Virus record (IMG/VR): IMGVR_UViG_2690316318_000009
Location: 1 to 7,705 of that record
Reading direction: 5' to 3' (one strand)
DNA: 7,705 bases
DNA from: a virus
Lineage: Duplodnaviria; Heunggongvirae; Uroviricota; Caudoviricetes
Shown here: positions 6,001 to 7,705 of the stretch, piece by piece
How the letters are laid out: the number at the start of each line of letters is the position of its first letter
Position numbering within the stretch: position 1 is the first letter of the stretch
Position numbers: made by a program

Positions 6001-7705
6001 GTGTGGTTGATGGTATGTTGATGATGTTGGATATCACACTTGAGATGGATTCGATTGTAATGGTATTTGATTAATATCATTTTTTTCAAAAGCGCGATAA
6101 AGAGAATAGCAGAGAATTATGAAATAATTGGGGTAAGTATGTTTAATAAGACAATTGTTTTAACTTTGCTAACATGTTTGTTTTGCTCTTCTGTCGCGGA
6201 TGCGAAGCGCGGTGGGCATAGGCGCTCATATCATCGTTCGCATACTTATCATTATAAAAATAATGAAGAGAGCAAACTAAGAACCTGCTCGGGAAGATAT
6301 GTTGATTATTATGGAGTTTGTGATGAAAAAATATGGAAAATAGTGAAAGTCCAAAACCTGTTACCACGAAAAAAAAGATACAAAAAGTAAGTGGTAAGGC
6401 ATCTAAAGTTGAAACTAGTTTATCTGACTCGCAAGTGAGAACCGTGTACCCACAGGAAAAGCCCAAACCTACTTGTGCTCCATTGTATATGGCTCACAAA
6501 CCTGGTTATACAAATTTGCCCATATGTGTTGATGGTCAATATTAATTACTTGGTTAGGTGTTTACGATCGTAAAAATCAGAGTATCCTGTTAAGAGTGGT
6601 TACTTCGCCACACAACTTAAACCCGCCTCTGAGCGGGTTTTGTCGTTTCTGAAGGATTTATATGAAAGAGATTAAAATTGCAGCACATCAATGTGTCTTA
6701 CCCGCTAGAATTCGATTTACATTTTCTACTTCTGGAGAAACTAAAGAAGAAGTGATTGAAAAGATGAGAATCGTCATCGATCAGCTTAGTAAAGACGAGG
6801 TCCATCTTGATCCATATGTACATCTTGAGAGTTATCTATCAGGCGTGAATATATCTTGCTCCCCCGCCTGATAGGTTAATTGTTTATTATTCCATTACCA
6901 TCTTGCCGATCTGTGCGGGAAGCGGGACAACATACTCCCAGAACGGTTCGTTAGAAGCGATGCCTGACCAGTACCAGATTGCTTTTGTGAAGATTATTGC
7001 TGCGTTATCTGTTAATGAATCAATGTCAAGAAGTCTCATATCACCACGGTGAATATTTGTATTATCACCTGCCAGTATTTCATAAATAGGTTGCGGCCCA
7101 TCGTGTTCACGATAATTTTCTCTAAAATAATTCGCATCCTCTATCTTTTCACAGGCGAATATTGACTGGTATCTGGATGGTTTTGTTGGGAACTGAAGCT
7201 GACGAACCAGTTCAACAATAAGCTCCATGAGATCAGTGCTGGTTAGGTCTCTTCTCGGAAACAGGTATCGTAAACCATGTTCAGCGATTTTGAAATCAAA
7301 CTTCGCCCCAATAGGACCATCAACAATGTAGCTATCAGTTACAGGCGGCACTATAGAAGAAAAATTCATTAATGTATTTGCATTGTATCTGCCTCTTCTG
7401 TCAGCAGAATAAAGCACTATGCCCATTTAACTCTCCTGATTTGATGTAGTTACTTTTGGCGATGTAACGATATCAAGCGCGAGGTTATACCGCCAGATTC
7501 TTAATCTGGCACTTCATCTGGCCCGGGTATGTACCGGTTTTTTTATTTAAGGCCGCTGACAGGTCCATTTAGTGCAACGTCTTTCCCCGTTTCCGCTCCT
7601 GGAATATTCGGGGATTTTTTATTCCCTCAATTTGCACCCGCGATATGTGCGAGGTGAGAGATGATGAAATGCCTCATAACCCAAATACCTGGCCGGACTG
7701 GCTGG

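Follow-up and report, generated by a model that had tools for sequence, protein, structure and literature searches.

A probable Q-dependent late promoter unit (PR'-tR') of the 933W/DLP12 type in a lambdoid prophage, with a candidate Q-binding palindrome and a putative shared pause module

The transcript from the late promoter (PR') of phage lambda is 194 nucleotides (nt) long. At this promoter sigma-70 re-binds a -10-like sequence, AACGAT, with a GGG discriminator, and the polymerase pauses at the C/G of TTCG, i.e. at +16/+17 (PMC5001585). For the Shiga-toxin phage Sakai Sp5 the PR' start was mapped by differential RNA sequencing (dRNA-seq), and the short constitutive transcript of the lysogen was seen to end 258 nt farther on (Sy, Lan and Tree 2020; PMC7547250). 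We report on a stretch of 7,705 nt (the window; positions 1 to 7,705 of the IMG/VR virus record IMGVR_UViG_2690316318_000009, Caudoviricetes), which is the right arm of a lambdoid prophage, and on an element at 6561-6648 that is very probably the late promoter unit of this prophage, PR' followed by the terminator tR', and the target of the antiterminator Q encoded at 5691-6074. The unit is of a known kind (933W/DLP12 type) and the window holds a new instance of it with an unusual moron layout; added here are a candidate Q-binding palindrome and a putative shared pause module.

A sensitive DNA search with positions 6540-6665 as query matched 374 phage records. The block 6561-6641 is homologous to the pR'/qut/first terminator region of 933W and VT2-Sakai (~82-92%; ~82% over 6560-6641), and the matching 81 base pairs (bp) in these two phages carry the depositors' labels "pR' putative late promoter", "qut" and "rho-independent terminator". 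The pR' annotated there consists of TTTACG, 16 bp and TATCAT, which aligns with the hexamers picked out in the original prediction, and the first terminator annotated in 933W is the homologue of the hairpin at 6619-6640. In 434B, PA-2, SfII and DLP12 of E. coli K-12 (in the latter between nmpC and essD) a homologous block precedes the holin gene by 120-140 nt. The published Sakai coordinates are shifted relative to NC_002695.2 by an offset that we infer to be 142 nt, a single value that fits both ends of the transcript. With this offset the start corresponds to position 736 of the VT2-Sakai locus (L007) and the 3' end to a T tract, L007 988-993, that belongs to the second annotated terminator. 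L007 736 is an A that is aligned with window position 6595, and the start predicted near 6595 thereby coincides with the mapped PR' start once the coordinates have been reconciled.

The association of the element with Q was studied in two samples. The first is a pattern scan of viral contigs and species-representative genomes, which gave 139 occurrences; its pattern forced the invariance of -4 to +20 and a second sample was therefore built via the Q protein only. A PF06530-type Q gene is present upstream and on the same strand in 107 of the 139 pattern-found occurrences. Of the 236 Q-anchored loci, 209 have the element downstream of Q in the same orientation, most of the others being contigs that end too soon. 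Among the relatives the gap between the Q stop codon and the -35 hexamer ranges from an overlap (933W) up to ~2.9 kb, filled with unrelated genes that are often on the opposite strand. The gap in the window is 486 bp (Q end 6074, -35 start 6561). Two loci that are 99.97-100% identical to the window, L222 and L224, continue with holin, endolysin, Rz/spanin and terminase genes, and the full holin of 108-111 amino acids (aa; PF05106), with endolysin, spanin and terminase, is found in L091, L222 and L224. Taken together, the homology, the association with Q and the downstream lysis genes argue for a Q-dependent late promoter unit (PR'-tR') of a Q21-family antiterminator.

The Q gene of the window (5691-6074, + strand, 127 aa) matches Pfam PF06530, to which Q21, Q933W and the DLP12 protein QuuD belong, with E = 5.6e-54 across the full profile. 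The match to the Q21 structures 6p18 and 6jnx is distant (phmmer E = 4e-6, residues 8-85 aligned), and at the DNA level the gene is ~85% identical to Q of the 434B and DLP12 type. The proposal that this Q serves a PR'/tR'-like late unit is supported by the annotated homologues, the mapped Sakai start and the lysis cassette downstream, and a scan of 6075-6140, where a late promoter directly after Q would lie, shows no + strand promoter or terminator. Of the two comparators suggested at the outset DLP12 was well chosen, while phage 82 was dropped since the Q of the window belongs to the Q21/DLP12/933W family (PF06530) and not to the Q82 family.

Within the window the -35 hexamer TTTACG occupies 6561-6566 (+ strand), aligned with the annotated pR' of 933W and VT2-Sakai, and is followed, after a 16-bp spacer as originally described, by the -10 hexamer TATCCT at 6583-6588 (+ strand), aligned with TATCAT of the 933W pR'. 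The predicted transcription start, placed by alignment with the Sakai start, is the A at 6595 (+ strand), the seventh base past the -10. The 12-bp perfect palindrome ttacgatcgtaa at 6562-6573 is indeed present, with GATC at 6567-6570 and overlapping the -35-like TTTACG, and it extends to 14 bp (tttacgatcgtaaa, 6561-6574). An intrinsic terminator, tR', stands ahead of the ribosome binding site of a 69-aa open reading frame (ORF69) as had been stated, with coordinates that we refine to 6619-6648 (+ strand; stem 6619-6626/6633-6640, loop 6627-6632 and a U-rich tail). The terminator scan gave for 6619-6640 a stem of 8 pairs (5 G-C) with a 6-nt loop, followed by TGTCGTTTCT, and RNA folding of 6595-6650 gave -19.4 kcal/mol (z = -4.0 versus shuffles). 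The terminated RNA is expected to be 47-54 nt long. ORF69 starts at 6662, and its Shine-Dalgarno sequence GAAGGA is located at 6651-6656.

By sequence statistics alone the palindrome, the promoter hexamers and the terminator are unremarkable. A 14-bp perfect palindrome is expected 0.62 times by chance in a window of this composition, 41 sites in the window match the promoter consensus equally well (4/6 + 4/6), a stricter promoter scan of the window did not list this promoter, and 4 terminator-like sites were found in 5100-7705 versus 1.7 expected. Rfam 15 covariance models gave no match at E ≤ 1 anywhere in the window, and a scan of the window for tRNA and tmRNA genes gave none. We hold the feature to be real because of its conservation and not because of its own statistics.

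Conservation was calculated by column for 119 distinct homologous elements of the Q-anchored sample. The -10 has the form TAnnnT with A(-11) and T(-7) invariant, and the homologous mapped start, the aligned hexamers and these invariant bases are indirect signs of a sigma-70 promoter that may be active without phage factors. Each column of TAAGAGTGG (6591-6599) is 90-100% conserved and strong conservation continues to about 6620, with +1 to +25 highly conserved. The most conserved block, TAAGAGTGGTTACTTCGC (6591-6608, + strand), comprises AAGAGT (6592-6597), a GG discriminator, an AT-rich stretch and a predicted pause near C6606/G6607. Moreover, GGTTACTTCGC (6598-6608) has 10 of 11 positions in common with the lambda PR' sequence GGTTAATTCGC (L140 174-184), both standing in one register behind a -10-like AAnnnT. 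This match is seen despite unrelated Q families, and its cause could be a shared pause module or recombination between late promoters. By comparison with AACGAT of lambda and TAAGCT of phage 21, AAGAGT would be the best candidate for the sigma-dependent pause element, with a pause near 6606-6607. TACTTC (6601-6606; TACATT in 933W) was considered as a pause element like that of phage 82 and was demoted, its key A being replaced in many relatives.

The terminator stems of the relatives vary in sequence yet still pair (CCCGC/GCGGG, CCTCGC/GCGGGG, CCCTGCC/GGCGGGG and ATCCTGCC/GGTGGGAT), and a T tract always follows. A 5' RNA hairpin (6596-6611) that folding predicts was rejected as a functional element, with pairs broken without compensation (G-A in 19 and A-C in 6 distinct sequences). 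Because this pairing is not maintained, the first 25 transcribed bases are constrained as DNA or as linear sequence and not through RNA structure.

These features suggest the following course of events. Host sigma-70 RNA polymerase would initiate at about A6595 from TTTACG-16-TATCCT and, without Q, the resulting RNA of 47-54 nt would end at the hairpin 6619-6640 and its U-rich tail. Once accumulated, Q would bind the promoter DNA, most likely the palindrome and A tract at 6561-6576, and would load on polymerase that sigma keeps in place a few bases farther on through renewed binding to a -10-like sequence, for which AAGAGT is the best candidate, with the pause near 6606-6607. Q would then ride the polymerase past tR' and later terminators into ORF69, the holin gene (from 7669), the endolysin and spanin genes and the structural genes. 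Of this scheme we infer the Q-binding site, the pause element, the position of the pause and the efficiency of termination.

The 14-bp perfect palindrome TTTACGATCGTAAA (6561-6574), with the A tract that runs to 6576, is our candidate for the Q-binding element (QBE). The Q proteins encoded upstream of the elements form clusters with less than 70% identity between them, which differ most in the helix-turn-helix region (e.g. ISLNQVVIRLQKAEG). At one and the same place each cluster shows an inverted repeat of its own, with an A tract after it in every case. Palindrome class and Q cluster correspond in 206 of 207 Q-anchored loci and in all 107 pattern-found loci. The cluster of the window, DLP12 and 933W has TTTAC(G/A)(AT/TA)CGTAAA (55/55 Q-anchored loci), a second cluster GCGTACGC (77/77) and a third GCGGnCCGC (74/75, the exception being a point mutant), while a fourth, represented in the pattern sample only, has TGTTATAACA (5/5). 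The variants of the -10 are common to several clusters, and several types of late leader past the terminator occur with at least two Q clusters. Since Q and palindrome stay matched even though the downstream leaders are shuffled and insertions separate Q from the promoter, we propose the palindrome as the QBE.

The position of the candidate site agrees with this proposal, as it lies between -35 and -10 like the QBE in the phage 21 record, and the lambda Q-binding site is likewise placed between -35 and -10 in the account of Zhang et al. (2018), which cites Yarnell and Roberts. The centre of the palindrome is 24 bp upstream of AAGAGT, and the distance from QBE to pause element in phage 21 is 20.5 bp. 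In the papers searched we found no description of a Q-binding site for the DLP12/933W branch. A divergent allele has been described as lacking PR' while keeping an altered qut (PMC10562709), which fits a modular picture. The palindrome is a likely candidate for the Q-binding element. Within the same Q cluster its centre is GATC in 21, GTAC in 29 and AATC in 5 loci. The earlier suggestion of an operator for a dimeric regulator can stand, the regulator most likely being Q itself, but that of a methylation-sensitive site cannot, GATC not being conserved; a Dam methylation switch was rejected because GATC is swapped for GTAC or AATC in most close relatives.

To a broader proposal we give an even chance: that the palindrome and A tract (6561-6576) are the QBE of the DLP12/933W branch, bound by a symmetric pair of protomers; that at least four specificity classes (TTTACG(AT/TA)CGTAAA, GCGTACGC, GCGGnCCGC and TGTTATAACA) have co-evolved with the helix-turn-helix of Q; and that one near-invariant pause module, TAAGAGTGGTTAC, common to all classes, overlaps the start and doubles as the joint at which Q/QBE cassettes recombine with interchangeable late operons.

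Several observations weigh against the assignment of the unit as PR'-tR' with the palindrome and AAGAGT as its functional parts. The promoter fits the consensus at only 8 of 12 positions, and approximately 12 loci with near-identical Q are without such an element within 5 kb. Q and palindrome are physically linked, so that their association may partly reflect inheritance and not function, and the annotators of 933W put "qut" at +7 to +14 and not at the palindrome. The AAGAGT candidate overlaps the start (-3 to +3), while the corresponding elements are at +1 to +6 in lambda and at +2 to +8 in phage 21. Finally, the PR' transcript of Sakai Sp5 is 258 nt and consequently passes the homologous first hairpin even without Q. 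Termination at 6619-6648 may therefore be only partial, and ORF69 may have basal expression in lysogens. As to the overlap, we know of no experimental precedent for a pause element that overlaps the start site.

Two side observations concern these points. In the Shiga-toxin phages a terminator of canonical appearance, homologous to the hairpin of the window, lies at +27 to +49 of PR' (L007 762-784 in VT2-Sakai; L006 in 933W), and there is a second one at L007 965-993; StxS-long ends at the second, and either the first hairpin is leaky or a product of ~50 nt went undetected. About a dozen loci (L160, L166, L167, L173, L177, L178, L195, L197, L204 and L205; about 5363-5560) encode a Q of the same cluster with the helix-turn-helix region RSDCWVGRMLQKAEG and lack a PR' element within 5 kb. 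Their Q gene is immediately followed by a near-palindrome, AACATTTTAAATGTT, and by a terminator, AGCCAGCCTCCCCAAAGGCTGGTTTTTTT, which resembles the StxS terminator of Sakai.

Short transcripts from PR' can be regulatory, as StxS binds Hfq, activates rpoS and represses stx1B (PMC7547250), and the unit could accordingly be chiefly the gene for a constitutive trans-acting RNA of ~50 nt in lysogens, conserved for base-pairing like StxS; such a role could coexist with that of PR'. The predicted RNA does have an unpaired stretch followed by the terminator hairpin and U tail, and its +1 to +25 region is highly conserved. StxS is alike in that it arises by termination at the same type of PR', but its functional 74 nt are the 3' part of the 258-nt transcript and lack a counterpart in the window; of the precursor only nt 1-46 align (6595-6641), and blastn-short of the 74-nt fragment with the rpoS/stx1B seed against the window gave only chance matches of 8-13 nt. 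Membership of the StxS family is thereby ruled out. Of the small RNA alternative raised in the original prediction, the ~50-nt RNA itself is still expected, but it would correspond only to the 5' end of StxS-long and not to its active part. The ~50-nt RNA matches no Rfam family at E ≤ 1, 25 distinct relatives have lost pairs of its 5' hairpin with no compensating change, and the conserved block reaches back beyond the start (TAAGAG) and is similar to the DNA pause modules of lambda and phage 21. We therefore regard a mainly trans-acting RNA as unlikely. The position of the terminator, with the Shine-Dalgarno sequence of ORF69 directly after it and the start of that gene (6662-6871) 12 nt past its tail, had also suggested a leader or attenuator specific to ORF69. 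This we consider highly improbable: neither a leader peptide nor an alternative antiterminator pairing is present, ORF69 and its neighbouring DUF2441 gene form an insertion of ~0.9 kb limited to this lineage, and what comes after this element in more than 200 relatives are holin leaders or, in the Shiga-toxin phages, tRNA and stx regions. With ORF69 part of a lineage-specific insertion, and not the target for whose control the unit evolved, the attenuator alternative falls.

In favour of a plain terminator of the early (PR) operon, ending with Q and a small secreted-protein gene, with hexamers and palindrome arising by chance, are the place of the hairpin downstream of a + strand gene block and the lack of significance of hexamers and palindrome when taken alone. 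In 933W, however, the element overlaps the stop codon of Q, and in DLP12, PA-2 and SfII, where opposite-strand genes stand between the two, the element cannot be what terminates the Q operon. Across the 119 variants, moreover, A and T of the -10 are invariant and the Sakai start is mapped at the homologous base, which leaves a plain terminator very doubtful. The conserved block has also been read in another way: GenBank J02580 (PA-2, lc porin gene) marks the homologous 21 bp (L003 1536-1556 = window 6595-6615) as a CRP binding site, and the PA-2 version has a perfect TCACA half-site (GTGG...TCACA). That the inverted repeat GTGG...CCAC (6596-6611) is a CRP site with catabolite control of the neighbouring genes nevertheless seems most improbable, since this annotation is a sequence prediction from 1986, the halves in the window fit TGTGA/TCACA at only 3/5 and 4/5, and the block is equally conserved where there is no porin gene (933W, SfII and the window). 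A Q-responsive PR'-tR' unit thus remains the preferred interpretation.

The first 6 kb of the window are 96% identical to phage 434, and the arrangement at 5600-7705 was found in no complete E. coli RefSeq genome. The gene order is P, NinB, adenine methylase, NinG, phosphatase, followed by LpxR lipid A deacylase (4170-5129, opposite strand), YlcG (5466-5606) and Q. The LpxR gene, embedded in very AT-rich flanks (4040-5460), separates the nin region from ylcG/Q as it does in phage 434; it resembles a classic moron, and LpxR may alter the outer membrane of the host. Between Q and PR' lies another moron (6139-6545, + strand), a frameshifted copy of a 135-aa gene that is seen in the window as two overlapping reading frames, 6139-6390 and 6333-6545 (83 and 70 aa), and is intact in L220 and L221; the N-terminus of its product is signal-peptide-like.

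Downstream of tR' many relatives have a homologue of window 7588-7697 approximately 60 nt past the element, and then endolysin, spanins and bor. Because the element of these relatives runs to the holin leader after ~60 nt, the region from 6652 to ~7580 (6652-7580, boundaries approximate; ~0.9 kb) represents an insertion in the late leader between tR' and the holin leader. It carries ORF69 (69 aa, 6662-6871, + strand) and the DUF2441 gene (6887-7426, - strand, assigned by Pfam), which would be transcribed antisense to the late transcript. The late-operon leader and the start of the holin gene follow at 7588-7705 (+ strand; ATG at 7669, MPHNPNTW...), the gene being cut by the end of the window. 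A second terminator-like hairpin with a T run (TCCTGGAATATTCGGGG ATTTTTTATT) is located at 7597-7622, approximately 50 nt before the holin start, where the relatives differ in sequence.

The annotation places the start of late transcription in this prophage. The late leader thereby includes ORF69 and, in antisense, the DUF2441 gene, and a moron separates Q from its own promoter. In 933W-type phages the same element drives the expression of Shiga toxin, and there the Q allele type serves as a marker of toxin output. The pairing of palindrome and Q provides a testable rule for which Q acts on which promoter.

Compared with 933W and VT2-Sakai (Sp5), the window has the same -35, the 16-bp spacer, a -10 of the form TAnnnT, the identical palindrome TTTACGATCGTAAA, the same initial transcribed block, a hairpin in the same place and a Q of the same cluster. 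The 933W promoter, however, overlaps the Q stop codon, whereas that of the window lies 486 bp downstream behind the frameshifted moron, and in 933W a second terminator, the one that yields StxS, comes 200 nt farther on, with tRNAs and stx after it, while the window lacks these and leads to ORF69/DUF2441 and the holin. The block of DLP12, PA-2 and 434B is alike in its ~83% identity, in having a Q (QuuD) of the same cluster and in having foreign genes between Q and the element; it differs in the centre of the palindrome (GTAC, in the window GATC), in the -10 (TATGCT), in being followed by an S21-type pinholin cassette and in the intervening gene, which is a porin gene on the opposite strand.

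Lambda PR' with its 6S RNA follows the same logic, with AACGAT-GGG-TTAATTCGC from +1 compared with AAGAGT-GG-TTACTTCGC from -3 in the window, but its Q belongs to an unrelated family (PF03589) and its -10-like element begins at +1 and not at -3. Phage 21 PR' (Yin et al. 2019; Shi et al. 2019) shares the Q family PF06530, a Q site embedded between -35 and -10 and a terminated transcript of ~50 nt, and its pause element TAAGCTG (record annotation, +2 to +8) is close to TAAGAGTG of the window. Its promoter DNA is nevertheless without similarity to that of the window and the match between the two Q proteins is weak. Finally, the phage 21 QBE is a head-to-tail direct repeat of two 8-bp subsites (ATTGAGCA and AATGAGCA), while the candidate in the window is an inverted repeat with an A tract; an inverted repeat acting as QBE would mean an arrangement of protomers other than that of Q21 and, if true, a second geometry of DNA recognition within one structurally solved Q family.

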